A DNA stretch of 64,000 bases from a virus (IMGVR_UViG_2791355224_000001:1-64000), one strand, 5' to 3'. Shown: positions 5,766-29,871, numbered from the stretch's first letter. Notes: a model not told the origin generated them from the letters alone. Translations and numbers: made by a program.

Positions 5766-6200
5766 ATGACCTTAAATGAAAACTTAAGTGAAGAGCAAAT
5801 ACTGGACAGCCTCTTTGAGGCGGCGAACAAGCTGCCTGAAGAGGCTGTATTTATTCAGCGTCTGGATATGAAGCTGGTGCTGCGGGGACTCACGTCCAGC
5901 AAGGTCGATAGTATCCGCGAGCGCTGCACGATCCGCAAAACCGTGAAGGGCCGGGCTGAGGAGAAGGTGGACACTGAAGTGTTCAACGCGTTGCTCATCT
6001 CGGAAGCCACGGCGCAGCTTGAAGTCAAAGGACTTCAGCTCAGCGGCTGGGGCGATTCCCGTATTGTCAGCCGCCTGAAGCTGTCCGGCGGCGATCAGGC
6101 CGTCCGCCGCATGCTGCTGGCCGGAGAACTTGACGCTGTGGGCGACAAGGTGCTGGAGCTGTCGGGCTTCGGCGTGTCGATTGAAGACCTAAAAAACTGA
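5766..6200 (+). CDS. xkdN: tail assembly chaperone (XkdN-like, gpG equivalent)
   Basis: between tube and tape measure; LLAGEL..VGDKVLELSGF...KN end. Confidence 0.85.
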   Translation: MTLNENLSEEQILDSLFEAANKLPEEAVFIQRLDMKLVLRGLTSSKVDSIRERCTIRKTVKGRAEEKVDTEVFNALLISEATAQLEVKGLQLSGWGDSRIVSRLKLSGGDQAVRRMLLAGELDAVGDKVLELSGFGVSIEDLKN

Positions 6201-6355
6201 TTCACTCCGGCGGAATGACGACGATGCTGTACCACATGTGGTCGCGGCATCATCTCCGTCCCGGAGTGTTCTGGACGCTGCCGCAGGGAGAGCGCAAGCT
6301 GCTGCTTGCCTTCTCCGAGCTGGAGCTGGATATGCTGGCGGGGAGTAGCTCGTAA
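6191..6355 (+). other. -1 programmed frameshift site and gpGT-like extension
   Basis: slippery A AAA AAC at 6191-6197 before TGA; -1 frame reads LIHSGGMTTMLYHMWSRHHLRPGVFWTLPQGERKLLLAF... to TAA 6353-6355. Confidence 0.8.
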
Positions 6356-6375
6356 AGAAGGGGGTGAAGAAACCA

Positions 6376-8010
6376 ATGGATAGAACATCAAATATCCGGT
6401 TAAAACTTGACGCCGGTTCACAAAGTTTGATCAAAGGCAATCGTGAACTCAAAGCTATGGACAAGTATTTGGATTCCATTCAGAAGCGGGTTAAACAACT
6501 TGGGCGAGTGCAGCTTATGTCTCAGGTTAATATGATTGACCGAATGACCCAATCTGTGAAGAACCTGTCAAGAGCATTGGATCAGGTGCATTGGAGGTAT
6601 CTGGTGAAACCAGCAGTATATAAGATTGTTATAGAGGAAAAGACACGAAAAATAACACGAAATTTTGTTAGAAATACCTTGCCCGCTACAATAACTCAGG
6701 AAAAAAGTAATTTGGTACAAGTACCGAAGAACAAAGAAGCTAATCAAAAGTTAAAAAGTAAGAAGTTGGCGGGGCCAAACAACTTATGGTCACTGGATTC
6801 CTATAACAATAACTTCGGAGAAAGTAAACCTGATTTTAAGAAAAAGTACGTAAAGCCAACCATTCAGTCTAGGAGCAACCTTGGATCACTGGAGCTGCTT
6901 ATAGATTTAGGTAATAAGTTTGGGTACTCTGATTCTAAAAAAGAAGAGCCAAATTCTCTATGGTCGGCTTTAACATCATTTGCAGCATTGGAAAGTAAGC
7001 TAAGCGATGGTTGGAACTATACAAAGTTATTTTCCCAGTCAGTTGATGGGATTTATAAAACTTCTGGTGGGGCAACAAATACTAATACTCCAGGGTGGTT
7101 TAAAAAGTCAATGAACTTCTTGGAACAGGCCGGACCACCGACCGCAAAGTTTCTGGATAAAACATTCAAAGTAGTAGGTATTAACACCTCTATAATGAAT
7201 GTTCTGAATTCTAAAACAAAGAAAGAAACATTTGAGAATGCTGGAGGAGAAATTTTAAAGTTTGCTTACTCAGCCACTTTAGCGAAATTTTTAAAAATAC
7301 CCCAATTTGCTTTTAAATCTGCCCTAACTACATCTATAGATATAGCTGGTTCGAAACTGGTCGAACAAATTGGGAAAGGAATTGGTGGCACAATTTACGA
7401 CATTGGTGGCACAGTATACGACGATGCTGCTAATTTCGAAAGAAATGCTCCAACTACAGTTTATGGTATGAAATTAGCTTTAAGTGAGATTGGTAATTAT
7501 TTTTCTTCACTAGGCAAGGACGTTTCCAGTTTCTTTTATAAAGAACCACCAAAGGTAGGACCACATGCAGTTTTAAATCCACCTTTTTCTAAGGTAGATA
7601 GCTTCGTGGTCAATTCGGGCAAGCCTTTGAATAGACAATATCCTAGAAATTTCGAAAGAGAGTTTTTTGGCACAGTACCTAACACAGTTGCTTTGTCTGT
7701 AAAGTCGTTTTTCCCTTTTAAGAGCACGAAGTTCAATCCTTATTCAATCACAGATCCAAATCCGAATAACATTAGGTTGGCACCGAAGAAACTTTCTCCA
7801 GAGCAAGTTGATAACTTGGTAGGTTATTTGAAGAAAGACAACCAAAAGAAAGAATCTGCAACCGTAAATATGCCAGCCGGGGCTATTCAAGTAATTGTTA
7901 ATCAAGGGGTAAAAAGCCTTGAAGAGCTAGTAACAGAAGTAAGTAAAAAATTCCATATAGAGTTTAAAAAGACCATGCAGAACAGCAAACCCAAATTTTT
8001 AGCCAATTAG
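6376..8010 (+). CDS. tape measure protein slot (short, AT-rich, divergent)
   Basis: position between chaperone and LysM/XkdP gene; coiled-coil N-terminus and Gly-rich amphipathic segment. Confidence 0.65.
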   Translation: MDRTSNIRLKLDAGSQSLIKGNRELKAMDKYLDSIQKRVKQLGRVQLMSQVNMIDRMTQSVKNLSRALDQVHWRYLVKPAVYKIVIEEKTRKITRNFVRNTLPATITQEKSNLVQVPKNKEANQKLKSKKLAGPNNLWSLDSYNNNFGESKPDFKKKYVKPTIQSRSNLGSLELLIDLGNKFGYSDSKKEEPNSLWSALTSFAALESKLSDGWNYTKLFSQSVDGIYKTSGGATNTNTPGWFKKSMNFLEQAGPPTAKFLDKTFKVVGINTSIMNVLNSKTKKETFENAGGEILKFAYSATLAKFLKIPQFAFKSALTTSIDIAGSKLVEQIGKGIGGTIYDIGGTVYDDAANFERNAPTTVYGMKLALSEIGNYFSSLGKDVSSFFYKEPPKVGPHAVLNPPFSKVDSFVVNSGKPLNRQYPRNFEREFFGTVPNTVALSVKSFFPFKSTKFNPYSITDPNPNNIRLAPKKLSPEQVDNLVGYLKKDNQKKESATVNMPAGAIQVIVNQGVKSLEELVTEVSKKFHIEFKKTMQNSKPKFLAN

Positions 8011-8026
8011 ATGCTGGAGGTGAACT

Positions 8027-8680
8027 ATGATTTCCGGTATGGAATTTAGTCTAACGGATGGGAACGGGGAGAAATTTGTTTTTCCTGTGAATCCTGAGGA
8101 AGTACAGATTACGCGCGAGCGGGGATACGATACGGTATCCCTGTTGTCGCTGGGAGATTTTGATTTTCCGCAGGGAGAGAGGGTGAAGGAGATCACCTTC
8201 TCTTCTTTTTTTCCAAGAGAGTATAACGAGAGCTACTGCAATTACAATCCCGTGCCTGATCCGCAGACGGCGATGAACAAGCTGACGACCTTTATGCACA
8301 GCAAAACTCCGCTGCGGCTGATCATTACAGGCACCCAGGTGAATGTGCTGGTCATCATCACTTCTCATAACTCCACCTTCCGGGGCGGGGAGACGGGGGA
8401 TGTGTATTTTGACCTGACGATGCGGACTTGGAGAGACCTGAAGGTGGGCAGAATCAATACAGCAGCTGGAGGTAAGGGAGCGAGCACGAAGGCAAGCAGA
8501 CCCGATCTTAAGAAAACACCTAAAACCTACGCCGTCAAACCCGGAGACTCGCTCTCCAAGATCGCTAAGCTGCAGCTCGGTTCAAGCTCCCGCTGGAGTG
8601 AGATCTACAAGCTGAATAAACAGGTTATTGGGAAAGATCCGAATAAGATCAAGGTCGGACAGAAGCTGGTGATGCCATGA
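8027..8680 (+). CDS. xkdP: LysM-domain tail tube initiator (XkdP-like)
   Basis: FPVNPEEV N-terminus; C-terminal LysM YAVKPGDSLSKIAK...IKVGQKLVMP. Confidence 0.9.
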   Translation: MISGMEFSLTDGNGEKFVFPVNPEEVQITRERGYDTVSLLSLGDFDFPQGERVKEITFSSFFPREYNESYCNYNPVPDPQTAMNKLTTFMHSKTPLRLIITGTQVNVLVIITSHNSTFRGGETGDVYFDLTMRTWRDLKVGRINTAAGGKGASTKASRPDLKKTPKTYAVKPGDSLSKIAKLQLGSSSRWSEIYKLNKQVIGKDPNKIKVGQKLVMP

Positions 8681-9672
8681 GCGGCGGCAGGCATGAGGTG
8701 AATTATAAAGTCATTTTGCAAAATAAATACGATCTCACCCCACTCGTGGAGAGTATTTCTCTGCGGGACTCGCTGGATCAGATCGCTTATCAGGCGACGA
8801 TCACTCTCGTTGTCAACGACAGTCTTCCCGCTGTTGATCCGGGGCAGGAGATACGGGTAAGCGGGATTCCTTTTGGCGGAAGTGGGATGGTAACGCTGCT
8901 GCACCCGGGTGTGGTGTGGGAGTGCGAGAGCTCCGGCAGCCCGAAACGGCTGACGCTGACGGTATATGATAAGACCATTTATCTGGACCGGTCCGAGGAT
9001 GAATATCTGTTCCCGAAAGGGCAGACGGCGAATGAGCGGATGCGCAAATATGCGCAGCATTGGCATATTCCACTCGACAAAAACATGCCTGACACGAAGA
9101 CCAAGCTGGGCCGGGCCATGTACCGCACTCAGACCATCTATTCGATGATGACAAATGACCTGAGAGAGACGGCAAAGCTCGGCGGTGATTTGTTCCACCC
9201 AAGGATGGTGTCCAGCGGGCTTACGCTGTACAAGCTAGGCTCGAATTCAAAGGTCTATGTACTTGAAAATCCTACGGAGGCGTCCCAGTCCAGAACACTG
9301 GAGGGTGCGGTTACCGAGGTGAAGGTGCTCGGCACGTCGGACAGCGCCGGAGAAGAGACGCCTTCCAAGGTGCTGGCGATCGCCAAAGGGCAGACGGACA
9401 AGCTGGGCACATTGCTGAAGATTGTCCAGGACGACTCAGTCAAGACAGAAGCCGCCGCCAAAAAGCTGGCTGCCAGCAAGCTTGCAGGCGTACAGCGTCT
9501 GCTTACGGTGACAGGACTGGATGTGAATACGATCCGTGCTGGAGATGCGGTAATGCTGAGCGGGCAGCGTCTAATTGTAACTTCGGTCAGCCGGGAGCTG
9601 AAAAGCGCCGGAACGATGACCCTGGAGCTTGCTCCCATGGATGATGTGAGAAGGAGGTTTTATCTTGAGTGA
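8677..9672 (+). CDS. xkdQ: baseplate hub protein (XkdQ/YqbQ-like)
   Basis: synteny after xkdP; YDKTIYL.RSED, IRAGDAV. Confidence 0.8.
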   Translation: MSGGRHEVNYKVILQNKYDLTPLVESISLRDSLDQIAYQATITLVVNDSLPAVDPGQEIRVSGIPFGGSGMVTLLHPGVVWECESSGSPKRLTLTVYDKTIYLDRSEDEYLFPKGQTANERMRKYAQHWHIPLDKNMPDTKTKLGRAMYRTQTIYSMMTNDLRETAKLGGDLFHPRMVSSGLTLYKLGSNSKVYVLENPTEASQSRTLEGAVTEVKVLGTSDSAGEETPSKVLAIAKGQTDKLGTLLKIVQDDSVKTEAAAKKLAASKLAGVQRLLTVTGLDVNTIRAGDAVMLSGQRLIVTSVSRELKSAGTMTLELAPMDDVRRRFYLE

Positions 9673-10072
9673 AGATGCTTTTGGCTCCCTTGCTTCTCTT
9701 GTGAATACGGCAATGTCGGCACACACCAAACAGGCCCTGAGCGGCACGGGAGCTGTGCTGGGAACGATAACCGCCGGGGGGCTTAAGCTTGATGATTTCA
9801 AACATGAGATCCCAGAATATCTGGTGGCTGAGCTTCCGGGAACATTAAAGCTCCCGGATTTTGCGATTTCCGGCTCCGTGGAGGGGCTTCGGGATAGTAC
9901 GGGCGGGGGGATTGATGGTCAGGGGAAGTTTCAATTTGCCAAGACGGACATTGAGAAGACGCTTTTAGATGTGAAAAAAGGCTTTCAGCCGGGCGACCGC
10001 GTCCTCGCTTTTCGCCTGAACGGCGGGCAGGATGTGGTGGTGCTGTGTAAGGTGGTGAATGGACATGCCTAA
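9665..10072 (+). CDS. baseplate spike-like protein (XkdR/DUF2577-like)
   Basis: GFQPGDRVL...GGQDVVVLCKV C-terminus; synteny. Confidence 0.7.
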   Translation: MSEDAFGSLASLVNTAMSAHTKQALSGTGAVLGTITAGGLKLDDFKHEIPEYLVAELPGTLKLPDFAISGSVEGLRDSTGGGIDGQGKFQFAKTDIEKTLLDVKKGFQPGDRVLAFRLNGGQDVVVLCKVVNGHA

Positions 10073-10520
10073 TCTTTTTCCGTTAGAGAGTGAGTTCACG
10101 GAAAATGAAGCTGTGGAAGGATCTGCTGACGACAACGTGATGTTCGGCCGCAGCTGGAGATTTGATTATGAAGCCGGGGAGTTTATTATGACTCCGACTG
10201 GCAAATTAGCCGTGGCGGATGAGCAGGAAGCTTGGATTCAGTGGTGTATGAAGGTGATCCGTACGCCGAGGTATCGTTATCTCGTGTATTCCCGCGACTA
10301 CGGCCATGAGCTGGAGGATTTGATCGGCTCTGGCGTGTCGCGAGCGGTCTATGAAAGCGAGATTCAGCGCATGATTGCTGAGGCGCTGATGACCGACAGC
10401 CGAACTGAGCGAGTGGATGGTTTTGCGTTCACTTGGTCTGGTGGGACATGCTCGTTCACCTGTAAGGTGTCCAGTGTAAGGGATGAGCAGGTGACTTTAC
10501 AAGGAAGTGTGGTGATCTAA
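10065..10520 (+). CDS. xkdS: baseplate gp25/W-like protein (XkdS/DUF2634)
   Basis: WRFDYEAGEF, TPRYRYLVYSRDYGHELEDLIG, EIQRMIAEAL..D.R. Confidence 0.85.
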   Translation: MPNLFPLESEFTENEAVEGSADDNVMFGRSWRFDYEAGEFIMTPTGKLAVADEQEAWIQWCMKVIRTPRYRYLVYSRDYGHELEDLIGSGVSRAVYESEIQRMIAEALMTDSRTERVDGFAFTWSGGTCSFTCKVSSVRDEQVTLQGSVVI

Positions 10521-11638
10521 TGGCAGAGCTGCCTTTATATTTGGAGGATCAGACTGAAGAAGAAATTATGCGGCGGATGCTCGCACGGGTGCCCTCTGAT
10601 TTGGACAAATCGGAGGGTTCTTTTATGTGGGATGCCGCGGCTCCTGCAGCGTTTATGCTGAGTGAAGCTGCGGTATGGGCACAGCAGGTGCTTGAGCGCG
10701 GGTTCGCTCAGACGGCCTACGGTGAATACCTAGACTTGCGCTGTGCGGAGCACGGGGTGGTCCGGCGTGAGGCGGTGGCAGCAAGGGGTGAGGTGACTTT
10801 TACCGGGAAGCCGGGGACACTAGTGGCTGAAGGGACGGTCGTCGCAACCCCGGCGGATGAGTTGTCACGCGAGGTGTCTATTGAATTTGCGACTGCGGCG
10901 GATGCGGTCATTGGGGATGAGGGTATTTGCAAAATCAGCGTGCGGGCAGTAGCCGCTGGGAAAAACGGAAATGTTCCTGCGGGGACCATTACCGTGATGA
11001 CCACATCGCTTAGTGGGATCACTTCGGTGGTCAACGAAGCCGAAACCAAGGGAGGTGCGGACGTGGAATCCGACGCTTCGCTGCTGGAGCGGTTCTACGG
11101 CAAGGTCCGCAGTCCGGGTACAAGCGGGAACAAAGCCCAGTACACCCAATGGGCGTTCGATCAGCCCGGAGTTGGCGGCGTGCAGGTCCGTCCGCTCTGG
11201 AAAGGGCCGGGGACAGTTGGCATATATCTGCTGGATGTGGACAAAAGAGCCGCCAATACCGAGACGGTCGCTGCCGTTCAGAAGTATATTGATCCGTCCC
11301 AGGACGGTCAGGGACTTGGAGCCGCTCCGGCTGGTGCGGTGGTTACGGTAATGGCGGCGGAAGAGGTGCCTGTTAGCATCCGTGCGAAGCTTACGCTGGC
11401 TAGTGGAGCTTCACTCGGTTCGGTGAAGGCGATGATTGAGAAAGGCGTTCGCGAGTATTTGAAAACGGTGGCTTTTGCCGATCCGCTCGTCCGTTATACC
11501 CGCATTGCCGCTGTTCTGCTGGATCTCTCCGCTATCATCGACTACGCCGATCTGACGGTAAATGGCGTGAACAATACGAACCTGCAAATCTCACCGGGTC
11601 AGGTAGCGGTGCTGGGAACGGTGGATGTATATGAATGA
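10520..11638 (+). CDS. xkdT: baseplate J/gp47 wedge protein (XkdT-like)
   Basis: DKSEGSFMWD, AYGEYLD, GGADVESD, SGNKAQYTQWA, PLWKGPGTV. Confidence 0.93.
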   Translation: MAELPLYLEDQTEEEIMRRMLARVPSDLDKSEGSFMWDAAAPAAFMLSEAAVWAQQVLERGFAQTAYGEYLDLRCAEHGVVRREAVAARGEVTFTGKPGTLVAEGTVVATPADELSREVSIEFATAADAVIGDEGICKISVRAVAAGKNGNVPAGTITVMTTSLSGITSVVNEAETKGGADVESDASLLERFYGKVRSPGTSGNKAQYTQWAFDQPGVGGVQVRPLWKGPGTVGIYLLDVDKRAANTETVAAVQKYIDPSQDGQGLGAAPAGAVVTVMAAEEVPVSIRAKLTLASGASLGSVKAMIEKGVREYLKTVAFADPLVRYTRIAAVLLDLSAIIDYADLTVNGVNNTNLQISPGQVAVLGTVDVYE

Positions 11639-12197
11639 TTTTGCGATGAAGAGTAAGCGCGGGAAGGAAATGCTCTCCTTCCTGCCGGGGTATTACGAGA
11701 CATCCCGGGTGATGAAGGCGGACATGGATGCCAAGGGCGCGGAGCTGGACTCGCTTTATGCGGCGATGGACGAGACGCTGGATCAGTTTTTTGTGAAAAC
11801 AGCCACCTGGGGGCTGGGACGTTGGGAGGCTGAGCTCGGCATTCCTCCCGAACCGGGCAAGCCGGTCGAGCAGCGCCGAGCGCTGGTTGAGTCCCGGCTC
11901 CGCGGAGCCGGGAATTTCACCGGCCGCCTCGTGAAGAACGTGGCGGAATCGTATGACGGCGGGACGGTGAACGTGACGTTTGCGCCGGCGGAGTATTCTT
12001 TTACCATCCGGTTTGTGGACACGATTGGCATCCCGCCGAATCTGGAGGACCTGAAGGCTGTGATCGAGGAGATCAAGCCGGCGCATATGGCGGTGGAGTA
12101 TGAGTTCAGCTACCTGCTGATCCGCGACATTGAAGGGATTAAGACGCTAAATCAGCTGGAGAAAATCCCATTATCTAAATTTGCAGGAGGTGTTTGA
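11631..12197 (+). CDS. xkdU: baseplate/tail protein (XkdU/YmfQ, DUF2313)
   Basis: LDQFFVKTATWGLGRWEAELGI, IEEIKPAHM. Confidence 0.88.
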   Translation: MNDFAMKSKRGKEMLSFLPGYYETSRVMKADMDAKGAELDSLYAAMDETLDQFFVKTATWGLGRWEAELGIPPEPGKPVEQRRALVESRLRGAGNFTGRLVKNVAESYDGGTVNVTFAPAEYSFTIRFVDTIGIPPNLEDLKAVIEEIKPAHMAVEYEFSYLLIRDIEGIKTLNQLEKIPLSKFAGGV

Positions 12198-12198
12198 T

Positions 12199-13851
12199 TT
12201 GCCAAGCAGCACACCAAATCTAGGGTTGCATAAGAAGGACCCGGTAACAGATGGAAACGAGACGTTTAATATCAAGACCATGTTGAATGACAACTGGGAC
12301 AAGATCGATGCGGCGGTTGGTGGGATCAAGGTGGATATCCCTGACGCGAGCTTGACGAGGAAGGGGAAGGTTCAGCTGTCCAGCAGCACGAACGGGAGTA
12401 GTGAGAGTCTGGCCGCTACGGAGAAGGCGGTGAAGGTGGCGAAGGAAGAGGCGGCAGTGCAGTCTAAAGCCTACACCGACCAGCAAATCAATCTTGTAAC
12501 AGAAACAGGCATACCCAAATTGGTTAGCTATCCGCTTCTGGTGACAGCAACGACCGATAATCAGACTTCATTTGAGATTCCGCTCGATACCTTCGACTCA
12601 AACACAGATACGCTGCTAGTGTCGATAAACCGGGCGACTCTGGATGCTACGCAGTACACTGTTACGAATACAGTTCGGGAGGGTTCCGGGAAGGTGACTC
12701 AGCGGGCGAAGCTCAATTTGTCGGAAGGCATCTCGAAAACGTCCGAGGTCGCAATGGTTGTGCTTAAAAACGTGCCAATCGGTGCCGAAGGTGCGATTAA
12801 CGGTGCAGTGCTGGCTGAGGGCAGTGTGCCGATCAATCGAGTGAATGGGCTAAGCGAGCATTTTTCCGATTATGTAAGGCAACCAGCGTTTGCATCCACA
12901 ACGGGAACGTCTACGGCCTATGTAGTATCCTTGACGCCTGCTCCTGCAAGCATTCCGACAGGTTTCGGGGTAACGATCGTGCCACACGTGGATTGCGGAG
13001 CTAACCCAACGCTTAATATTAACGGACTAGGTGCGGTGGCGTTAAAAGACCAGAAGGGCGTTGCTTATACGGCCGGCAAACTTAAAGCGGGAATGCCGTA
13101 TACTTTCCGCAAGGTGGGTACGGATTTTTTGGCAGATAGCGCGGGCGGATCAGGTACCGCTATGGCGGGAGACGTTCGCGCGGGTAAGACAGCGGCTGTG
13201 GATACGGGGGATATTACGGGTGCGCTCATTACCCAGTCAGCTACCGCACAGACAATAACGCCTGGCACTACGGATATTGTTAAACCTGCGGGTATCTACG
13301 ATGGGACTATAACTGTAAAAGGAGAAACAAATCTAACTGCGGGAAATATTAAGAACGGGGTTACAATGTTTGGAATTGCTGGAACACTCAAACCGAGTGT
13401 TTATGGCACGACGCAGCCGACATACAGGTCAACTATTAGACTCCCCGCTAATCAGACATCTAATCAGTATAGTTCTGATATTGTGGTGTTCCCGGCTGGG
13501 ATTAGTACTATATCTTTAAGCAATAATGGTAGTTTGAATAATAATACAACAGTTTCGTCTGGAAGTGATAACACCTACTCAGGTTTATACTTGAAGTGGG
13601 GGGGGAGCTATAATCAATTGATCGAAGTTGCTGGCGGTTACCCAGTGGAAATTTTTTCCATTCAAATTGATTTGCCTGCAAAGGTTGCAAATGTAATTTA
13701 TCGGGTTGGTTCAAACTATGGAGTTAGAACGGTGTTAATTTCTCCTAGTACTGGGGCGATTAGCTTAGTACATGGGTACAAAAATTTGGATACTGTGTAT
13801 TCTTTTGATGTAGCAATTCGATTTGAGAATAGTTTTATCATTTACGCATAA
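12199..13851 (+). CDS. tail fibre protein 1
   Basis: TPNLGL...MLNDNWDKID N-terminus, DASLTRKGKVQLSS...AATEKAVK fibre repeat, NLTAGNIKNGVTMFGI; AT-rich C-terminal tip. Confidence 0.85.
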   Translation: MPSSTPNLGLHKKDPVTDGNETFNIKTMLNDNWDKIDAAVGGIKVDIPDASLTRKGKVQLSSSTNGSSESLAATEKAVKVAKEEAAVQSKAYTDQQINLVTETGIPKLVSYPLLVTATTDNQTSFEIPLDTFDSNTDTLLVSINRATLDATQYTVTNTVREGSGKVTQRAKLNLSEGISKTSEVAMVVLKNVPIGAEGAINGAVLAEGSVPINRVNGLSEHFSDYVRQPAFASTTGTSTAYVVSLTPAPASIPTGFGVTIVPHVDCGANPTLNINGLGAVALKDQKGVAYTAGKLKAGMPYTFRKVGTDFLADSAGGSGTAMAGDVRAGKTAAVDTGDITGALITQSATAQTITPGTTDIVKPAGIYDGTITVKGETNLTAGNIKNGVTMFGIAGTLKPSVYGTTQPTYRSTIRLPANQTSNQYSSDIVVFPAGISTISLSNNGSLNNNTTVSSGSDNTYSGLYLKWGGSYNQLIEVAGGYPVEIFSIQIDLPAKVANVIYRVGSNYGVRTVLISPSTGAISLVHGYKNLDTVYSFDVAIRFENSFIIYA

Positions 13852-13867
13852 AGGAGGTTATTTAGTT

Positions 13868-14085
13868 ATGAGACATGTAGCATACGAACTTATGAATGGG
13901 TCTGCAAATAAGGGAATGTTATCGCAATAATTACTAACGCTTATCCTGATCAACGAAATTGTACTATGATTATTTATCACGCGAGACGATAGGAAACCAA
14001 AGTGAATTCGTTGGTAAAGGAAAACACCAACTTGAAGCAAGCCGTAGCAGATCTCACTAGGACCCTTACTGCAATAATGAGCTGA
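13868..14085 (+). pseudogene. degenerate tail fibre chaperone
   Basis: AAGGAGG RBS + ATG, early stop, frameshift and internal TAG; remnant ends ENTNLKQAVADLTRTLTAIMS, similar to TELKQAIADLSMTMAAMMG of 14923-15297. Confidence 0.6.
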
Positions 14086-14106
14086 AGAAAGAGAGGATAA
14101 ATCCAA

Positions 14107-14913
14107 ATGACAAAACGAATTACTCTGCAAGAGATGGATGAGAGCACAGTTGCTCTAATTAAGACCGGCCTATTCGGGACAACGAACAATAGCGGTAACG
14201 CGTACTCAGTTACGGTATCATCGGATATTACGAAGCTTGAACCGGGATTGCCTATTCGAATACTTATCAACGTTGACAGCACCGGAGCACCAACGCTTAA
14301 TGTGAACGGTCTTGGTGCAAAACCGGTTCTTAAATCTAACGGCAATGCGGCAAACTTTAAATTGGGTGGGCTATACACGGTTGCTTGGAATGGCTCAACG
14401 GCTTTTATCTTACAGGGTGAAGGGGGGGAGTATGGAACGGCGACCGCTGCGGATGTCCTAGCTGGTAAGACAATTGGGACGGATTCGGGTATAGTATCAG
14501 GATCAATGGTCAATCAAGGCGCAAAAGTCTTAACGCCGTCAACTTCAAATGTTCCTATTCCGGCAGGTTATTATAATGGAAGTGGATATGTAGCTGCGTA
14601 TACACCGGGGAAGCGGTTTGCGCGCGGGATAGCAACGACAGATAGTTATAGTCATTTTGCTGTTACGGGATTAGCATTTAAACCAGGAACGATTATTTTT
14701 GAAATGGATTCAGTTGTTGGTTATGGGGCAGTGTTTAATGTCCATGCTATAACTAACTCGCCTACAGCGTCTCAGTCCATCATGGGATTTTATTACGAGG
14801 GGCATAATCCCTTTATTCATTATGTGGCACAATTTAACTCAAACGGGGCTGTAGGGATTGTAACCGGATGGGGTTCAATGATGAACGTTCGTTGGATGGC
14901 ATTTGAAGAGTAG
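14107..14913 (+). CDS. tail fibre protein 2 (lacks the N-terminal baseplate-attachment region)
   Basis: paralogous to the middle of fibre 1 (PTLNVNGLGAKP vs PTLNINGLGAVA; ATAADVLAGKT vs AMAGDVRAGKT); ends VRWMAFEE. Confidence 0.75.
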   Translation: MTKRITLQEMDESTVALIKTGLFGTTNNSGNAYSVTVSSDITKLEPGLPIRILINVDSTGAPTLNVNGLGAKPVLKSNGNAANFKLGGLYTVAWNGSTAFILQGEGGEYGTATAADVLAGKTIGTDSGIVSGSMVNQGAKVLTPSTSNVPIPAGYYNGSGYVAAYTPGKRFARGIATTDSYSHFAVTGLAFKPGTIIFEMDSVVGYGAVFNVHAITNSPTASQSIMGFYYEGHNPFIHYVAQFNSNGAVGIVTGWGSMMNVRWMAFEE

Positions 14914-14922
14914 GAGGGGAAG

Positions 14923-15297
14923 ATGAATATGCAAATAGGACGTAAAATTTACTTTGACAATCGAACCGGGGAAGTTCTTCAGGATACAGGCGAGCGCGAA
15001 GGTGATGTAATTGAAACAACTAAAGAACAGGATTTTGCTGTTTATAAATCGCTTAACGAGAGAATCTCTGAAACTGTTGGAATGCTTCAACTTGAATACG
15101 GCGAATACGCCCGAGATTTTGCAGAGGGATTCCTGGAGCGTATTGATCCAGTAACCAAAGAGCTTAAGTTTCGTTATTCTGACCCTAATCATCTCGGAGG
15201 AGTTACAGAGCCGCAGAAACCGCTGACAGAGCAGGTAACCGAACTCAAGCAAGCCATTGCGGATTTATCAATGACCATGGCAGCAATGATGGGCTAG
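14923..15297 (+). CDS. tail fibre assembly/chaperone protein
   Basis: IGRKIYFDNRTGEVLQDTGE.EG.V.ETT.EQDF motif typical after Paenibacillus fibres; coiled-coil C-terminus. Confidence 0.7.
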   Translation: MNMQIGRKIYFDNRTGEVLQDTGEREGDVIETTKEQDFAVYKSLNERISETVGMLQLEYGEYARDFAEGFLERIDPVTKELKFRYSDPNHLGGVTEPQKPLTEQVTELKQAIADLSMTMAAMMG

Positions 15298-15314
15298 GAA
15301 GGAGGTTAGAAATC

Positions 15315-15455
15315 ATGACTTTTACCAAGGATAGCGGGTTGGTTAAGGTATGGGTTGGCTTTGTTATGACGGGTGCGTACACTATCACACAGGTACCGAA
15401 GTTGTTTAATCTCAATGAAGTTGTCGCGGAAGTCGTTAACGGAACAGTGCAATAG
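15315..15455 (+). CDS. small XkdX/CD1375-like protein (46 aa, not in ORF track)
   Basis: AGGAGG RBS; MTFTKDSGLVKVWVGFVMTGAYTITQVPKLFNLNEVVAEVVNGTVQ. Confidence 0.7.
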   Translation: MTFTKDSGLVKVWVGFVMTGAYTITQVPKLFNLNEVVAEVVNGTVQ

Positions 15456-15465
15456 TAAACAGAGA

Positions 15466-15489
15466 CAGCGCCGCGAGGCGTATTTTTTT
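15466..15489 (+). terminator. intrinsic terminator after the fibre module
   Basis: CGCC-GCGA-GGCG hairpin followed by a T run. Confidence 0.65.
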
Positions 15490-15546
15490 CGCCCCCACCC
15501 GGGGGCACACCACCTAACTACCAATATTTAAGAGAGGGGCGAGAAG

Positions 15547-15831
15547 ATGGGGCAAGAAGAGATGAACAGTCTGAAGGATCTACTCCCACTCGCCGAGCGA
15601 TACGGCCTGGCCGTTGTGCTGTCGTTCATCCTGCTTCTCGTCGTTGTGGTCATCATCCGGATGATTATCCGGGGGGATCTGGTGCCGCGCAGTCTGTTGG
15701 ACAAGGCGGAGGAGGACCGGGACCGGCTGCAGGCCATCCTCGATAAGGAACGGGAGGGGTTCATGACACCGCTGCTGGAAGTGGTGAAGAACCTGAAGCA
15801 GCAGGACGGATCGGATCACAAGGGAGGGTAA
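15547..15831 (+). CDS. holin-like single-TM membrane protein
   Basis: hydrophobic GLAVVLSFILLLVVVVII followed by coiled coil; upstream of the endolysin. Confidence 0.6.
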   Translation: MGQEEMNSLKDLLPLAERYGLAVVLSFILLLVVVVIIRMIIRGDLVPRSLLDKAEEDRDRLQAILDKEREGFMTPLLEVVKNLKQQDGSDHKGG

Positions 15832-15834
15832 CAC

Positions 15835-16041
15835 GTGTTGAATCGTATTTTGCAGCGGCTTTTTTCGGCCCATCGTGAGAAAAACAGGGAACTGAACTAT
15901 GCGTCCAGCCGCATCAGCTTGACCATTGCCAGATACAAAAGCGCATCAAAGCAGCTTCAGACGGAAATCGGGCGCAGCCACTATGCTCATATTCCATCAC
16001 CAAATGCACCTCAAGAACTGCATTCGGACAGAGTTCACTAG
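15835..16041 (+). CDS. hypothetical lysis-region protein
   Basis: GGGAGG RBS + GTG start, 68 aa. Confidence 0.5.
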   Translation: MLNRILQRLFSAHREKNRELNYASSRISLTIARYKSASKQLQTEIGRSHYAHIPSPNAPQELHSDRVH

Positions 16042-16202
16042 TGCCTTTGTGCCCTCGATGTGTATTCTAGTCTGGCTTATAATTTTCGTGAAGATCGATC
16101 AGTCTAGAACACAACGTATATGCTCGACCACATTCTAACGAACACCCGTCGTTTAGTTCATATATTAACTATTTTCACGGTCTCAGAAAGGGGAGAGTTG
16201 AT

Positions 16203-17063
16203 ATGCAACCCCGCAGTCAAAACAGCGCCCAAGGCATTGACGTCAGTCATTACCAAGGCGTCATTGATTGGAACAAAGTGAAAGCGAGCGGCATAACGTT
16301 TGCCTTTATGAAGGCCAGTGAGGGCAAGTCCTATCGGGACAAGCGCTTCCTGGAAAATGTAAAAGGAGCCGCAGCCTCAGGCCTTCTCACCGGCCCGTAT
16401 CATTTTCTCAACGCCCGGACTCCTGAAGAGGCCGGAGTAGAAGCCCGGAATTTCGCCGCAGCCATTCAGGCAGCCGGAGGTCCGGGCTGTTTTGCACTTC
16501 CGCCGGTGCTCGACTACGAGAACAATCCCGGCGGCCTAGATGATGAGCAGATCACCGGGATCGCTCTCGCCTTCCTGCGCGAGATTGAGCAGCTGACCGG
16601 ACGTCGTCCGATGCTGTACACGGGGAATTCTTTTGCCGCCAAATTCGGCCCGGCCTTGTCAGGGTACAAGCTGTGGATTGCGAGATACAGCAGCAGTAAA
16701 GTGCCAAGCGATGTTCCTGCATGGACGAGATGGCATTTCTGGCAGACGAGCAGCAAGGGAAGCGTGCCTGGCATCCAAGGAAATGTGGACCTCAACGTAT
16801 ATGCCGGGACGGTGCAGGAGCTAAAGAATGAGTTTATTTTGCCAAAAGGAGATAATTCCATGCCTAATCCAAATAACAAGGATAAAGAATCACCGAACCC
16901 CTCTTCCCCAAGCAGTCCGGAACCTGTTCCCCAATGGAAAGAAGAAGGCCGCAAATGGCTGATCGCCAACGCGGGAATCCATGAGAACTGGAAGCCTGGG
17001 GACCATGTGGACATCGGGACACTTGGCACGATCCTGGCGAGACTGTACAATTCACCGAAATAA
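16203..17063 (+). CDS. GH25 muramidase (endolysin)
   Basis: GIDVSHYQG.IDW, FAFMKASEG, PPVLDYE, LWIARY, GNVDLN. Confidence 0.93.
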   Translation: MQPRSQNSAQGIDVSHYQGVIDWNKVKASGITFAFMKASEGKSYRDKRFLENVKGAAASGLLTGPYHFLNARTPEEAGVEARNFAAAIQAAGGPGCFALPPVLDYENNPGGLDDEQITGIALAFLREIEQLTGRRPMLYTGNSFAAKFGPALSGYKLWIARYSSSKVPSDVPAWTRWHFWQTSSKGSVPGIQGNVDLNVYAGTVQELKNEFILPKGDNSMPNPNNKDKESPNPSSPSSPEPVPQWKEEGRKWLIANAGIHENWKPGDHVDIGTLGTILARLYNSPK

Positions 17064-17076
17064 AGGAGCTGTCCAT

Positions 17077-17373
17077 ATGAATAATGAGATTTTAACGAAT
17101 GTCCTATCTTTTGCCTCGGTACTGGCTGTGTTTGTGCTGGCGCTGGTGCAGCTGGTCAAATCAACGATAGATATCCCCAAACGACTTATCCCCCTAAGCG
17201 GGCTAATCATCGGGCTGGTTATTGGGGCAGCCGCATATCCTTTTACAGAGCTGACGCTCGTGCTCAGGTTGTGGGCGGGAGGGCTTGCAGGGCTGTCGGC
17301 AACGGGATTGTTCGAACTCGCATTTAACAAAAGTAAGCCCACAGATCATACAAATTCAGCTGGCCGCCCTTAA
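17077..17373 (+). CDS. phage holin
   Basis: three TM segments, LWAGGLAGLSATGLFE; AAGGAG RBS. Confidence 0.85.
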   Translation: MNNEILTNVLSFASVLAVFVLALVQLVKSTIDIPKRLIPLSGLIIGLVIGAAAYPFTELTLVLRLWAGGLAGLSATGLFELAFNKSKPTDHTNSAGRP

Positions 17374-17544
17374 AAATAAACAAGCCATCCTTATAGGATG
17401 ACTTGACATTAACAATATAATAATTTGGGCTTGTCCAGGGAACTTTCCCACAAGTTTATTTTGGTCAAAGGGGCGTACACCCAGCCCACCGGGACTTCAA
17501 GGGCATATGGTAGGGTAAGTCAACTATCAAGGAGGAATTTACAA

Positions 17545-17926: not shown

Positions 17927-18712
17927 TCACAATCCCGATCTTTTGCTTTCATCGTGTGAGTCTTTAACTGGCTGAGCTTGCTTTTGGTGCTTCATCAACT
18001 CGCTGACGGTGACGCAGCGGTACCCGCGCTTTTGAATCTCTGGGAGAATAGCTTTTAACGCAGCGACCGTCTGCGTGCTGCCTTCCACATGGTCGTGCAT
18101 CAAAATAATGTCACCGCTGTGCAGATTATTAAGCACCTTATTAATAATGCGGTTCACGCCCGGTCTCGACCAATCTTTTGTATCCTGATGCCAGGACCAC
18201 AGTATAACCTGCATGCCTTTAGCGTGGCTGGAGTTCACGATGATGCTGTTATAGTAGCCTCCAGGAGGGCGGAACAGGGATGAGTGTTTTCCTATAGCAT
18301 TATATATGCTCTCCTCCGTCAGGGTGACTTCTTTGTCAAATAAACGGGCGGTATTTCCTGCGCTAAAATAAGTATGGTTATACGTGTGATTGCCAATCTC
18401 GTGTCCCTTGGCTGAGGCCGTCTTGACGAGCTCCGGGAACCGGCTGACCCGGTTGCCAATGACAAAAAAGGTCGCTTTGGCCTGATACTGGTCAAGCAGG
18501 TGGAGAATTGCCGGAGTCTGAGTGGGATCTGGCCCATCATCAAAAGTTAAAGCAACCACCTTATCATCTGTCGCCACTTCCCATACAATCTCTCCGCGGG
18601 GTTCATAATAATCTCTGCCCTTAGGTGCTCCCAGTGCGGCAGCAGGTGAAGCGCAGGAAAGTGATCCTGTGCCAAGCAGCAGGGCAAGCGCAAGGGTCTG
18701 CCATTTACGCAT
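17927..18712 (-). CDS. polysaccharide deacetylase (CE4/NodB) with signal peptide
   Basis: ALTFDDGP, ATFFVIG, HEIGNHTYNH, FRPPGG, IILMHD. Confidence 0.95.
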   Translation of the reverse strand: MRKWQTLALALLLGTGSLSCASPAAALGAPKGRDYYEPRGEIVWEVATDDKVVALTFDDGPDPTQTPAILHLLDQYQAKATFFVIGNRVSRFPELVKTASAKGHEIGNHTYNHTYFSAGNTARLFDKEVTLTEESIYNAIGKHSSLFRPPGGYYNSIIVNSSHAKGMQVILWSWHQDTKDWSRPGVNRIINKVLNNLHSGDIILMHDHVEGSTQTVAALKAILPEIQKRGYRCVTVSELMKHQKQAQPVKDSHDESKRSGL

Positions 18713-18934
18713 GATTGCCTCCTTCGTTAACCATAATCCGGTTTAGTATGTGAGGAAAGGGGGGATTCATGCATTTCTGGCAAAAATGCTGCGGGTGAGG
18801 TGGAAAAGCAAGTTGTAATTCACCGCCTAATCCGGTGCGCTTAATTTCTTTTATTGATAAGTTAGGATCACAATAAATTAAGATCGCCAACTTGCTAGCA
18901 AAAGCGATTTTTGAACTTCCTGACTAGGTTGGTG

Positions 18935-18964
18935 TTGACACGTATCTTAAAATCGTGTTATTAT
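18935..18964 (+). promoter_or_regulatory. sigmaA promoter of the tRNA gene
   Basis: TTGACA (18935) - 18 bp - TATTAT (18959) with extended TG. Confidence 0.75.
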
Positions 18965-18995
18965 CTAATTCGTTGCTGTAAGTTGGCGCATACGC

Positions 18996-19034
18996 GCCGG
19001 GGTGGCGGAATTGGCAGACGCACAGGACTTAAAA
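18996..19034 (+). tRNA. 5' half of tRNA-Leu(UAA), interrupted at the anticodon loop (attL)
   Basis: GCCGGGGTGGCGGAATTGGCAGACGCACAGGA-CTTAAAA matches acceptor 5' strand, D arm and anticodon 5' stem/loop; the expected TCCTG is replaced by CAAAAC. Confidence 0.88.
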
Positions 19035-19186
19035 CAAAACGTGTGTTCTCTTTATTAAATCCGCTAGGCATTACGGTGTCGGTACGCATCCCCTACGCAA
19101 CAATTACGCTAGTCCTACGAACCGCAAAATACGGAATCCTATACGCCTGCATTCGCTTTATTCGTTATTTACGACGAGTAATCCGA

Positions 19187-20185
19187 ATGGAGGCGTTTAT
19201 TATTGAACGGAAAAGACGCGTTAACCTCGCGGCTGCTGGCCGCAAATCCTCTACGGTAGAACTTCCGCTGGAATCCGCCGACTTTGATTGTGCGGTCTAC
19301 TCCTTCCTCCGATATTGTCGCATTCGTAACCTATCCGGCAATACCGTCGATTTTTACCGCGATGTTCTAAAAGAGCTAGAGAAACAACTCGCGAGTCAAG
19401 ACGTTACTCGGCCGATTGACATTACGAAAGATAACGTACTGAACGCAATGGATAAAAAGCGAAACGAAAAGATTAAGCGGGGACGTGCGGAAACTCCTTC
19501 TGATGCTACGATGAACAAGCTTATACGCGGATGGCGGGCTTTCTTTAACTGGCTGCATACGGAGGGATTTATCGATCCCAATCCTTTTAACGGAATCGGC
19601 GTTATAAAATCCGAGCGAAGAGTCATCGAGACTTTTTCGAATGCGCAGGTAAAGGCGCTACTGGATGCGCCAAACCGATCTACATTTACGGGATACCGTG
19701 ATTATGTGATCATGCTTACCTTATTGGATACCGGCATCAGAATTAGCGAATTGGCCTCGTTAAGAGTTACGGATATAAACTGGGGAGATCGGACGTTTAA
19801 GGTGTACGGCAAGGGGCGTAAGGAACGAATTGTACCTTTTTCACGCGCATTAGAGAAGCACTTGAGAGAGTACGTAGAAATACGAGGCACTGTGGATACT
19901 GACTGTTTATTCGTCAATATTGATAACGGCCCGTTTAAGGTCCGCGGTATCCAGCAGGCTATACAGCTTTACGGAAGGGACGCAAGAATAAAAGGAGTTC
20001 GGGTAAGCCCGCATACGTTTCGCCATACCTTCGCTAAAATGTACATAATGAACGGTGGCGACTCGTTTAGCCTACAGAAGATCCTCGGGCATACCTCGCT
20101 CGAAATCGTAAAAATGTACGTAAATTTGTTTAGTACGGATGTAGCGAAACAGCACGCCAAGTTTTCTCCATTGGAACGCCTATAA
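19187..20185 (+). CDS. int: tyrosine recombinase / phage integrase (start ATG 19187 or ATT 19202)
   Basis: SAM-like N-domain, LLDTGIRISEL, GKGRKER, HTFRHTFA, LGHTS...Y. Confidence 0.95.
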   Translation: MEAFIIERKRRVNLAAAGRKSSTVELPLESADFDCAVYSFLRYCRIRNLSGNTVDFYRDVLKELEKQLASQDVTRPIDITKDNVLNAMDKKRNEKIKRGRAETPSDATMNKLIRGWRAFFNWLHTEGFIDPNPFNGIGVIKSERRVIETFSNAQVKALLDAPNRSTFTGYRDYVIMLTLLDTGIRISELASLRVTDINWGDRTFKVYGKGRKERIVPFSRALEKHLREYVEIRGTVDTDCLFVNIDNGPFKVRGIQQAIQLYGRDARIKGVRVSPHTFRHTFAKMYIMNGGDSFSLQKILGHTSLEIVKMYVNLFSTDVAKQHAKFSPLERL

Positions 20186-20202
20186 ATCGTTAACACAAGA
20201 CG

Positions 20203-20243
20203 TAGCGCTCAGTTCTTCGGGATTGGGCGCTATTTTTTTTTTT
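20203..20243 (+). terminator. intrinsic terminator after integrase
   Basis: TAGCGCTCAGTTC-TTCG-GGATTGGGCGCTA followed by a long T run. Confidence 0.85.
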
Positions 20244-20308
20244 GCAAAAAAGTGAGCGAGACGTGACTAGTCTCCGTTGAGATAATTGTAGGAGGAAATA
20301 TTTTCGCG

Positions 20309-20355
20309 AAAAGTGTGCGGAATTGAAGCGAACTTTCTATATAGCGATATGAGCG
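20309..20355 (+). promoter_or_regulatory. phage-specific promoter-like motif, copy A
   Basis: TGTGCG-N14-YTTCTAT; near-identical copy at 39327 and same spacing at 29220. Confidence 0.6.
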
Positions 20356-20414
20356 TAAATTTCCACTAACTTGCGAGACCTCGACAAAAAGTAGAGGCGA
20401 AAGGAGGCGTAATA

Positions 20415-20692
20415 TTGGACGCTCGGGACCGATTGGAAGCCCATCTAATTTGGAGATCGCACGTTGCTTTGAGATATCAGAGTCCTATGAAACGTATAAG
20501 AGATTTTTAAGAGCTTATGGTATCCCCTACCGCTATATAGATCGTAACTATGGAGGAAGAGAGGCCATTTCACAGGGGTATGACTTTGAGCGGAGGTTAG
20601 GCAATATTCTTAGCATTATTTACCCGGTTGTAGAGCAGTGGCCAAAAATAGGAATCTGTATTCCAGATTTTATAATAAACGGCTCAGAATAG
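20415..20692 (+). pseudogene. hypothetical gene, apparently frameshifted
   Basis: AAGGAGG + TTG at 20415 opens a short frame; a longer 80-codon frame continues from 20450 in the -1 frame. Confidence 0.35.
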
Positions 20693-20773
20693 GTTGACGC
20701 TAAACTAAGCGCCCATAGTGTGCGTGACTCCCGGTGCCGGACGGTTGAGAAATACGAAGAGGAGGCAGATGTT

Positions 20774-20944
20774 CTGACGATTTACTACGCTCGTGGAAAA
20801 AGGGAGCCGTTTAAGTACGGGATTGCTAACGTACTTCACGTATCCGCATTGTTTCCTGCACTATTGGCCGCTGGGCGTCCTGACTTAATAGCGGACATGA
20901 AGAAATTTATATCCAGCGTTTCTTTTAAGGAGGAGGTTGCATAA
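20774..20944 (+). CDS. hypothetical protein (probable CTG start)
   Basis: GAGGAGG 8 nt before in-frame CTG; stop overlaps the next ATG. Confidence 0.5.
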   Translation: MTIYYARGKREPFKYGIANVLHVSALFPALLAAGRPDLIADMKKFISSVSFKEEVA

Positions 20945-21673: not shown

Positions 21674-22357
21674 ATGACTTACGCACCAACCCGCACCTTT
21701 CCCGATAACCCGCTTCTCGGTCCGCTATCTCGCGCCGACTTCATTACCGCCAATTTGCCGCTCGTCCACAAGGTCGCGAGCCGTTACGTTACTGTTTCCC
21801 GTGCTTTTCGCGTGGAATTAGCGGACATTATCGGCGAGGGGAGTATCGGACTCATAAACGCTTACGACCGCTATAACGACGCAAAAATCACGTTTGGAAC
21901 GTACGCTTATAGCCAAATAAGCGGCCGCATCCAGAATTACTTTCGCGATAAGGTGGGCGACGTTAGTATCCCCGCGCGCTTGGTCGAATTGTCGCGCAAA
22001 GTTATCACCGACAACCTTGAAGACGCATCCCCGGAAGTGATCGCGGAGAGCCTCGGCATTAGCGTGAATAGAGCGAAGAATGCTGCCATGTGTGCCAAGG
22101 CCCGGTTTGCCTCACCGATCGACAACGTGGACAATGACGCTAGTATCTTCGCGAGAGTTGATGATGTTAGCCACGTTGATGTCGCCCAGTTTATCGGTAA
22201 GCAGCCGGAACGACAGCGCCAGATCGCACGCTTATTACTAGCCGGTAAGACAAATCGCGAGATCGCGTCAGTAATCGGAGTCAGCCAGGGGCGCGTTACG
22301 CAGCTTATCACCCGTCTACGTAAAGACTGCGCTGCAGAGTTCGAAATTGCCGCTTAA
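21674..22357 (+). CDS. phage sigma-70 family factor (SigB/SigF/SigG-like)
   Basis: NLPLVHKVA.RY, D..GEG.IGLINAYDRY, FGTYAY..I.G.I..YFRD, region 4 REIASVIGVSQGRV. Confidence 0.9.
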   Translation: MTYAPTRTFPDNPLLGPLSRADFITANLPLVHKVASRYVTVSRAFRVELADIIGEGSIGLINAYDRYNDAKITFGTYAYSQISGRIQNYFRDKVGDVSIPARLVELSRKVITDNLEDASPEVIAESLGISVNRAKNAAMCAKARFASPIDNVDNDASIFARVDDVSHVDVAQFIGKQPERQRQIARLLLAGKTNREIASVIGVSQGRVTQLITRLRKDCAAEFEIAA

Positions 22358-29258: not shown

Positions 29259-29277
29259 GTCAAAAGGAGGTTTGCGA

Positions 29278-29871
29278 ATGGTCTTTGAGGATTATTTTAA
29301 CAAGTACCAACCTGCTGTAAAAGCAATTAGTCACGCAAGGAGCTTAAGGAGCCGTGTTCCCCGTGAGGAGTTTATCAGTTGCTTGAATGAGGAGTTATGG
29401 AGAGCTTTTCAAACATTCGATGAATCCAAGGGATGCTCGTTGAATGGTTGGGTAAATAGGCTCTTAGAACAAGCCGCTATTCGTCTTATTAAGTCTAAGG
29501 AAGGTAGTTACCACCGAAACGTATTTAACTTGATCGATGCGGACAAGAGTGAGGAACGGGGAAATAGCGCGCCAACGTTAGAGCCCTGCACTGAGCCAGA
29601 GTTCGTTGAGGAAAGAGTATTCCAAAGGATGCGAAAAAAAGAAGCCGACCAGCGCCAACTGATCGACTTCCTTATACACTCGGGACCTCCCGACGCCACG
29701 ACGACTGCTATCGTCGAAGCATTTAAAACAGCGCCAGCCAGCGCCTCGGATACCGCGATCGCCAAATCAATCGGTATCCATCATGAAACCGTTAAACGCA
29801 AGCTTCGCAAACTATCTCGCCGTTACGACGCCAATCGCTTCGGTGATTTAAACGAATATCTTGCAGTTTAA
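29278..29871 (+). CDS. sigma-factor-like protein
   Basis: region-2-like EELWRAFQTFDESKG.S..GW and C-terminal HTH TAIAKSIGIHHETVKRKL. Confidence 0.7.
   Translation: MVFEDYFNKYQPAVKAISHARSLRSRVPREEFISCLNEELWRAFQTFDESKGCSLNGWVNRLLEQAAIRLIKSKEGSYHRNVFNLIDADKSEERGNSAPTLEPCTEPEFVEERVFQRMRKKEADQRQLIDFLIHSGPPDATTTAIVEAFKTAPASASDTAIAKSIGIHHETVKRKLRKLSRRYDANRFGDLNEYLAV

Follow-up and report, generated by a model that had tools for sequence, protein, structure and literature searches.

A 65.5 kb prophage in the anticodon loop of a single-copy tRNA-Leu(UAA) gene appears to integrate from the 5′ side and to leave the gene whole at its far end

We find that the analysed stretch of DNA (the window, 64,000 nucleotides, corresponding to G000:C4:1876819-1940818) holds the left part of a temperate, intact-looking prophage of 65.5 kb. 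The prophage has very probably (at roughly 0.87) integrated in the anticodon loop of the sole tRNA-Leu(UAA) gene of its host, in the mirror image of the usual mode, leaving that gene whole at attR. In the usual arrangement, attP holds the part of the tRNA gene that lies 3′ of the crossover, and the rebuilt gene stands beside int with the host promoter kept. Mirror-image integration, from the 5′ side of the tRNA gene, is rare but already described, and this prophage is a further bacterial example of it; what is added here is that the design recurs in a clade of integrases targeting tRNA-Leu anticodon loops, and that a sister phage is of the ordinary type. A tempting false lead is also removed, as there is neither a prophage-held tRNA nor an excision-controlled decoding of TTA. 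The features on which this reading rests are collected in Table 1.

Table 1. Positions of the attachment-site features, the integrase gene and the flanking host genes. Plain coordinates are those of the window; C4 coordinates are those of the host contig.
Feature	Position	Strand	Basis or remark
Polysaccharide deacetylase gene, left host flank	17927-18712	−	Pfam Polysacc_deac_1, E 1.2e-35
attL promoter-like site, TTGACA-18-TATTAT, TG before the second hexamer	18935-18964	+	Consensus match 11/12
attL copy of the exact 55-bp direct repeat (16 nt leader and tRNA nt 1-39)	18980-19034	+	
tRNA-Leu(UAA) nt 1-39 (5′ fragment)	18996-19034	+	100% identity to the genome's tRNA-Leu(taa)
Anticodon loop CTTAAAA	19028-19034	+	Right edge of attL/attR identity; probable overlap region
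Prophage body, window part	19035-64000	+	Whole: 19035 to window-equivalent 84501, 65,467 bp
P′ arm, between core and int	19035-19186	+	Shared 7-mers, motif counts
int, tyrosine integrase	19187-20185	+	332 aa from ATG 19187; start codon uncertain
First terminator-like hairpin past the attL promoter, just after int	20202-20233	+	14 pairs, 6 of them G-C, then 10 T
attR promoter-like site, TTGACA-18-TATTAT with TG	L029 308-337		Consensus match 11/12; inside the prophage
Complete tRNA-Leu(UAA) at attR	C4:1961281-1961366 (L055 4463-4548)	+	ARAGORN; Rfam tRNA, 54.8 bits
Uracil-DNA glycosylase (UDG) gene, right host flank after the tRNA	L055 4687-5349		

The left junction

The original prediction had read this region as a promoter, a tRNA 5′ half that ends at the loop, non-tRNA DNA and int, in that order, and a consensus scan for promoters together with searches by ARAGORN, Rfam and Pfam confirmed this order at the positions given in Table 1, the promoter as a promoter-like site. 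The promoter-like site at 18935-18964 is the best of four in the region 18500-20600, for which shuffled sequences lead one to expect 3.6, and promoters of the same build precede the intact tRNA-Leu(UAA) genes of relatives (read by eye). Judged from its sequence and place, we take it to be the host promoter of tRNA-Leu(UAA), left at attL by integration.

The 5′ fragment belongs to a 55-bp direct repeat whose second copy, 100% identical to the first, lies outside the window at G000:C4:1961265-1961319 (window-equivalent 84447-84501). Within the window itself, ARAGORN finds no tRNA gene and no Rfam match reaches the gathering score, and the 152 nt that follow the fragment (19035-19186) are non-tRNA sequence. 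The claim that the phage supplies no tRNA 3′ half is literally true.

The rebuilt gene at the right junction

An intact tRNA-Leu(UAA) gene lies 65.5 kb downstream of the attL fragment on the same strand, 20.5 kb past the end of the window. Local alignment of both regions shows that the attR copy of the 55-bp repeat runs on into the tRNA 3′ half, with which it is fused. The original prediction had raised this arrangement, with a 5′ half provided by the phage at attR, only as an alternative to its main claim. The rebuilt 86-nt tRNA is the same as the gene in five relatives (G002, G021, G009, G020 and G017).

The promoter-like site at attR is one of 4 found in L029 1-1200, where 1.6 are expected, and it is 85% identical to the attL promoter across 46 nt. 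Pairwise alignment places approximately 94 nt of extra sequence, an arm, between this site and the leader, and the distance from the −10 hexamer to the tRNA start is 125 nt at attR as against 31 nt at attL. The adjoining prophage genes point away from the site, which is the only co-directional one nearby and the presumed driver of the rebuilt tRNA. It would presumably be active as a promoter, and the 125-nt leader would be processed; RNA folding of the attR leader together with the tRNA gave no convincing structure (z −1.07).

Across the whole genome, ARAGORN detects 90 tRNA genes, 11 of them for tRNA-Leu and only one of these with anticodon taa, in an assembly of 4 contigs with 95.67% completeness whose unassembled repeats could hold an extra tRNA-Leu(UAA) copy. 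The original prediction had named several redundant copies of the gene as a further outcome that would refute it, and the single taa gene among the 11 speaks against such copies. Under the wobble rules, TTA is decoded by the UAA-anticodon tRNA alone, and the long ORFs of the host contain approximately 13,500 TTA codons. We infer that the gene at attR must be expressed, because it is the only reader of those codons, and with a single taa gene the rebuilding of the tRNA is obligatory and not optional.

These results bear directly on the idea with which the analysis began, that the prophage splits tRNA-Leu(UAA), that the tRNA is intact only after excision, and that excision would in this way switch TTA decoding during development or stress, much as in skin/sigK and SPbeta/spsM. 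A 5′ half at attL that phage DNA does not complete, and a TTA share of leucine codons in the prophage that is about double that of the host, are what such a switch would have in its favor. However, a complete tRNA-Leu(UAA) with a promoter-like site stands at attR as the sole taa gene, a lysogen deprived of it would by the wobble rules presumably be inviable with so many host TTA codons to read, and the gene is rebuilt likewise in four other elements. The tRNA is whole in the lysogen, and therefore no excision-dependent on/off switch exists; we give the split-gene idea next to no credence. A complete tRNA rebuilt at attR from a phage 5′ half and provided with a promoter, here a predicted one, is the outcome by which the original prediction had itself said it would be refuted. 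In skin/sigK and SPbeta/spsM the target is broken while the element is integrated, whereas here the tRNA is intact in the prophage state.

Leucine codon usage

In a crude count over non-overlapping ORFs of 120 aa or more, selected from the longest down and including some spurious ones, TTA makes up 16.9% of leucine codons in the prophage (58 ORFs; 13.8 per 1000 codons; CTG 14.8%), 8.6% in the rest of the genome (4267 ORFs; 8.7 per 1000; CTG 38.2%) and 9.8% in the tail module upstream of the tRNA locus (17 ORFs; 8.9 per 1000; CTG 36.6%). The earlier visual impression that TTA is frequent in prophage genes and scarce in tail and host genes was thus right in direction, the prophage share being approximately twice that of the host and the tail module (window 1-17400) being host-like in its leucine usage. 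The part that falls is the supposed gain in TTA decoding on excision: since the tRNA is whole in both states, the bias has no bearing on excision.

Integration mechanism and crossover site

For the mirror-image mode, we propose an attP that runs from a near-consensus promoter through an arm of approximately 94 nt, 16 nt of leader and tRNA nt 1-39 into the P′ arm and on to int. On integration, the host promoter and the host 5′ half would shift to attL, beside int, and the phage promoter and phage 5′ half would join the host 3′ half at attR, 65.5 kb off. Excision would restore the host version of the tRNA gene. Strand exchange would fall within the 7-nt anticodon loop, which would then contain the presumed cleavage sites.

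Taken by itself, G000 is compatible with a crossover at any position of the 55 bp. Across the int clade, the last base of the anticodon loop marks the end of identity in each of five cases (G000, G066, G064, L100 and L102), and the extent of leader identity varies, from 16 nt here to 8 nt in G066 and none in L102/L110, so that tRNA nt 1-39 are the only stretch common to all of them. The lack of leader identity in L102/L110 places the exchange within tRNA nt 1-39. A position in the anticodon loop is favored because the right edge is fixed, the leader is variable, and the loop is the mapped overlap region of other tyrosine integrases, as described in passages of PMC8371274.

The same observations weigh on a different possibility, that the tRNA was never cut and that exchange took place where the 55-bp identity begins on the left, within the leader. 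The phage would in that case have inserted between the host promoter and a tRNA gene left untouched, and the 39 nt at attL would be phage DNA. With identity that reaches 16 nt into the leader, G000 would formally allow this. The dwindling of that identity to 8 nt and to none in the other cases, the right edge that stays at the last loop base in 5/5 of them, and the loop overlap mapped for other integrases all argue against it, and we regard a crossover in the leader as very improbable. It counts against the proposed scheme that the two halves of the attP core would not be inverted repeats of each other, since the phage side lacks the 3′ strand of the anticodon stem.

Transcription of int and the attachment arms

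The integrase gene (PHROG phrog_1 integrase, E 1.2e-49; Pfam Phage_integrase, E 9.2e-36, profile positions 3-168 of 172) is co-oriented with the tRNA 5′ fragment, and terminator prediction finds no terminator-like site between the two. RNA folding of the attL leader, 5′ half and int 5′ UTR (z −2.11) reveals no terminator and no convincing attenuator. The earlier remark that the tRNA promoter is aimed at int with no terminator in between is thereby upheld in silico.

In the integrated state, the host tRNA promoter at attL would read through the 5′ half into int, and in the circular form the phage right-end promoter would stand upstream of int. Read in this way, int would lie behind a strong tRNA-type promoter in both states, and promoter, 5′ half and int appear to form one unit closed by the hairpin at 20202-20233.

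The P arm contains two copies of a AACGAATATT..CGCGTA element and three CGTAAG motifs, and the P′ arm contains four TACGC motifs together with an inverted copy of the P-arm AACGAATA-type repeat. By eye, a 35-nt stretch is common to the P and P′ arms in direct orientation, and a homologous P′ arm is present upstream of int in L100. The motifs look like candidate arm-type sites at which protein would bind. When the DNA of the attR arm and 5′ half was compared with the phage collection, only the 40-nt tRNA part was matched, in 4 unrelated records.

Recurrence in related elements

In a survey of 53 genomes of the genus, G000 included, matches to int at E ≤ 1e-40 occur in 16 genomes, the closest being those of G066 (55%), G064 (54%) and G021 (45%). 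IMG/VR contains four provirus records with int at 79, 75, 74 and 59% identity, two of which (L099 and L101) are truncated where int begins and so do not show the flank. Among relatives of at least 54% identity with a visible flank, a 39-nt tRNA-Leu 5′ fragment stands beside int in 4 of 4 (G066, G064, L100 and L102), and the fragments beside these relatives (54-75% identity) come from the isoacceptors UAA, UAG and CAG. In L100, for example, a host promoter is followed by tRNA-Leu(UAA) nt 1-39, an arm and int.

Both ends are resolved in five elements, namely G000, G066, the IMG/VR record G072, G017 and G023, and every far end of those other than G000 has a TTGACA- or TTGCCA-like promoter (by eye). 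The ends of G066 were paired from printed sequence, unlike those of the other elements; here a variant tRNA-Leu(UAA) 5′ half follows a tRNA cluster, stops at the loop and leads into an arm and int, and the far end, approximately 16 kb downstream, has a promoter, an arm of approximately 150 nt and a complete tRNA-Leu(UAA) gene. In L102 (record G072, int 59%), the fragment is tRNA-Leu(UAG) nt 1-39, again after a tRNA cluster and before an arm and int, and at the opposite end of this 64.5 kb record a promoter and an arm accompany a complete tRNA-Leu(tag).

The elements of G017 and G023, as far as their sequences go, represent a second integrase lineage with the 5′-fragment design. Their tRNA-Leu(UAA) repeats are 61.7 and 66.9 kb apart, respectively, the upstream 5′ fragments are 56 nt long in G017 and 46 nt in G023, and the far ends have the complete gene, an arm and a promoter-like TTGCCA / TGCTATAAT pair. 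An ORF with similar N-terminal sequence follows the fragment in both, and the G017 integrase, the copy that was measured, is only 28% identical to int of G000.

The layout in G064 departs from the simple 5′-fragment picture. At this locus (L059, G064:C1:3236437-3240393, positions 2440-3100), a promoter and tRNA-Leu(CAG) nt 1-39 lie past the 3′ end of int and are convergent with it, and the other flank of the fragment is a homologue of the right-end gene of the prophage (phrog_34234 type). The locus looks like an attP-like or tandem junction in the chromosome, with int inverted relative to G000.

The 45% relative of int in G021 stands directly after a complete tRNA-Leu(CAA). At the same locus (L060, G021:C1:1203288-1207175, positions 1160-1520), a near-copy of approximately 19 nt of the tRNA-Leu(CAA) anticodon stem-loop, with one base missing, lies approximately 120 nt past the tRNA gene and just upstream of the integrase. 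Six genomes (G023, G006, G051, G010, G022 and G043; L062-L065 and L073-L085) have 2-3 tyrosine recombinase genes within a few kb, with 38-44% identity to int, and a 49-50-nt tRNA-Leu(CAA) 3′ fragment is present near the clustered recombinases in G023, G006, G051 and G010.

The clade may target the 5′ side of the anticodon loop in tRNA-Leu UAA, UAG and CAG; among relatives at 44-45%, the 3′ side is, or seems to be, the one in use. The attP of the clade would then be a portable tRNA expression cassette, made of promoter, arm and 5′ half, whose promoter would drive int while the phage is circular and the rebuilt tRNA once it is a prophage. Since cassette and host promoter are alike, homologous recombination from promoter to promoter could drop the prophage and leave the arm behind as a tRNA leader. 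Taken as a whole, the proposal that the int clade (54-79% identity) is a tRNA-Leu 5′-side specialist with a portable dual-use promoter cassette in attP, which rewrites tRNA leaders when the prophage is lost, is a tentative one, to which we would give slightly less than even odds. If it is true, phages of the clade would be recasting, throughout the genus, the promoter and leader of a tRNA gene that is essential and present in one copy.

In G009 (L053, G009:C1:1393000-1400000, − strand), a single tRNA 5′ half is present, with no flanking prophage. Approximately 100 nt replace the leader between the tRNA and a host-type promoter common with G020 (L048), the site lying approximately 190 nt upstream of the tRNA-Leu(UAA) of G009, and across 225 nt the combined arm, leader and tRNA show 79% identity to attR of the prophage. 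This leader may be the scar of a prophage lost by recombination between host and phage promoters.

Comparison with known systems

The structural features of a tRNA-integrating element of the Campbell type that restores its target are present, with a tyrosine recombinase gene at one end, a direct repeat of tDNA comprising an intact gene and a fragment in the same orientation, and an empty site in the relative G002. In Islander, 159 of 3919 islands carry a 5′ tDNA fragment (Hudson, Lau and Williams 2015, PMC4383910), and the present prophage is like this class: what it displaces is the 5′ end of the tDNA, which is found upstream of the regenerated gene and in line with it. The passages on that class give no promoter, arm or leader anatomy; what goes beyond them here is a defined int clade, the tRNA-Leu isoacceptors and a predicted element-borne promoter. 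In a survey of Klebsiella, one tRNA-Arg gene is described as having islands at its 5′ end (bioRxiv 10.1101/2020.11.02.365908).

For the pTN3-like integrases of Thermococcales, passages of PMC8371274 describe an attB that is the 5′ half of a tRNA gene, the restoration of an uninterrupted tRNA copy, and expression of the recombinant gene from a promoter of the element. Our prophage resembles these in its use of the 5′ half and in the restored tRNA, its element promoter being a predicted one. Unlike archaeal pTN3, a plasmid or virus-like element, it has a promoter-like site of bacterial build (TTGACA/TATTAT), and the arm with this site is found at the prophage end far from int.

The closest sequenced phage is Bacillus phage Mgbh1 (NC_041879.1), whose int is 44.2% identical over 90% of its length. 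The gene order is alike (lysis genes, − strand gene, att region, int, HTH_36 protein, replication initiator), and a TTGACA-17-TATTAT promoter with TG stands upstream of the att region and is directed towards int. The att region itself differs, with 64 nt that correspond to nt 31-92 of tRNA-Ser(GGA) at 92% and no complete tRNA, and Mgbh1 is thus of the conventional 3′ type, in which the rebuilt gene stands beside int under the host promoter. The 5′-type clade and the ordinary-type Mgbh1 could serve as a pair for asking how the crossover side of the target homology changes within an integrase lineage, and by what route an essential tRNA gene comes under a promoter brought in by an element.

As in the tRNA-dependent lysogeny of Fionnbharth-type mycobacteriophages (Guerrero-Bustamante and Hatfull 2024, PMC10865867), a phage that enters an essential tRNA gene has to make up for the loss. 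In that system the common core is approximately 10 bp and the host tRNA is truly destroyed: the junction does not rebuild it, and the phage complements it with a complete tRNA gene that lies elsewhere, whereas here the tRNA is rebuilt at the junction and no tRNA gene is found within the prophage (C4:1895852 to 1961264).

In the ICEKp1 element, as shown by experiment (Liu et al. 2026, PMC13023037), the host tRNA promoter drives int in the integrated state and a promoter at the far end does so after excision. Our prophage has a similar geometry as read from the DNA alone, with no terminator-like site before int. In ICEKp1 a complete tRNA-Asn precedes int and stem-loops in the 5′ UTR attenuate read-through, whereas here only the 5′ half stands before int and the two promoters are near-copies. 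Elements with dusA-specific integrases replace the 5′ end of their target and have putative −35/−10 sites after integration, in passages of Farrugia et al. 2015 (PMC4482086); these differ from our case in a protein-coding target and a different integrase family.

Literature searches for a bacterial element with its own tRNA promoter led to the systems compared above and to no account of the present phage group, which is a weak absence, as phrases with a prime, such as 5′ end, are unsearchable. Prophages of this kind would be given wrong borders by annotation tools that look for an intact tRNA beside int or for a far-end 3′ fragment; the two of four IMG/VR provirus records that are cut at the int start are offered as an example.

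Prophage content and host flanks

The prophage genes lie almost all on the + strand. They encode int, an HTH_36 DNA-binding protein and sigma-factor-like proteins; the replication genes include a DnaB-like helicase and a 942-aa DNA polymerase, with a methyltransferase also present; and the virion and lysis genes include a large terminase, a major head protein, a 1234-aa tape measure, a tail protein and an endolysin. Two sigma-70-family proteins are encoded at 21674-22357 and 29272-29871, one with regions 2 and 4 and the other with region 2 only, and such phage proteins suggest redirection of the host RNA polymerase. Just inside attR are two − strand genes without assigned function. The right-end − strand gene (L055 3844-4215) matches phrog_34234 only, likewise without assigned function, and it was considered as an excision factor common with gp36 of Mgbh1, to which it showed no similarity in comparison.

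All 8 of the 8 checked replication, packaging, head, tail and lysis proteins are full-length matches, the 55-bp repeats are exact, and the catalytic domain of int covers Pfam positions 3-168 of 172. Each of these points speaks against an element that is decayed and immobile, with the duplicated promoter and 5′ half as a fossil attachment system, as does the occurrence of int relatives at 59-79% identity in IMG/VR proviruses of similar size (60.9-65.1 kb). On the side of decay is that no excisionase was identified, the small ORFs at 20450-20692 and 20720-20944 having no family match, and that the three sequencing runs matched in a search share only 4-10% of the sampled words, too small a part to reveal excision junctions or transcripts. 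We consider decay unlikely, if less so than a crossover in the leader, and the intact-looking temperate prophage remains the preferred reading.

The host genes on either side of the prophage match those around the empty site. In the relative G002 (L031), the deacetylase gene, tRNA-Leu(UAA) and the UDG gene are contiguous in one 3.2 kb locus, with 74% and 73% aa identity for deacetylase and UDG, and deacetylase orthologues adjoin tRNA-Leu(UAA) in G002, G021, G009 and G020 (62-76% aa identity).

Further to the left, window 1-17400 holds a contractile-tail module with a sheath (3717-5177), a tail protein (8677-9672), a baseplate wedge (10520-11638), a fibre-like protein (12181-13851) and, at its end, a GH25-type endolysin (16203-17063) and a holin (16981-17373). 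No head or packaging gene is present among the 10 ORFs scanned there, and the module, which the tRNA locus directly follows, has the look of a PBSX-like defective prophage or tailocin. Two tRNA-Met genes lie 2.6 kb before the start of the window.
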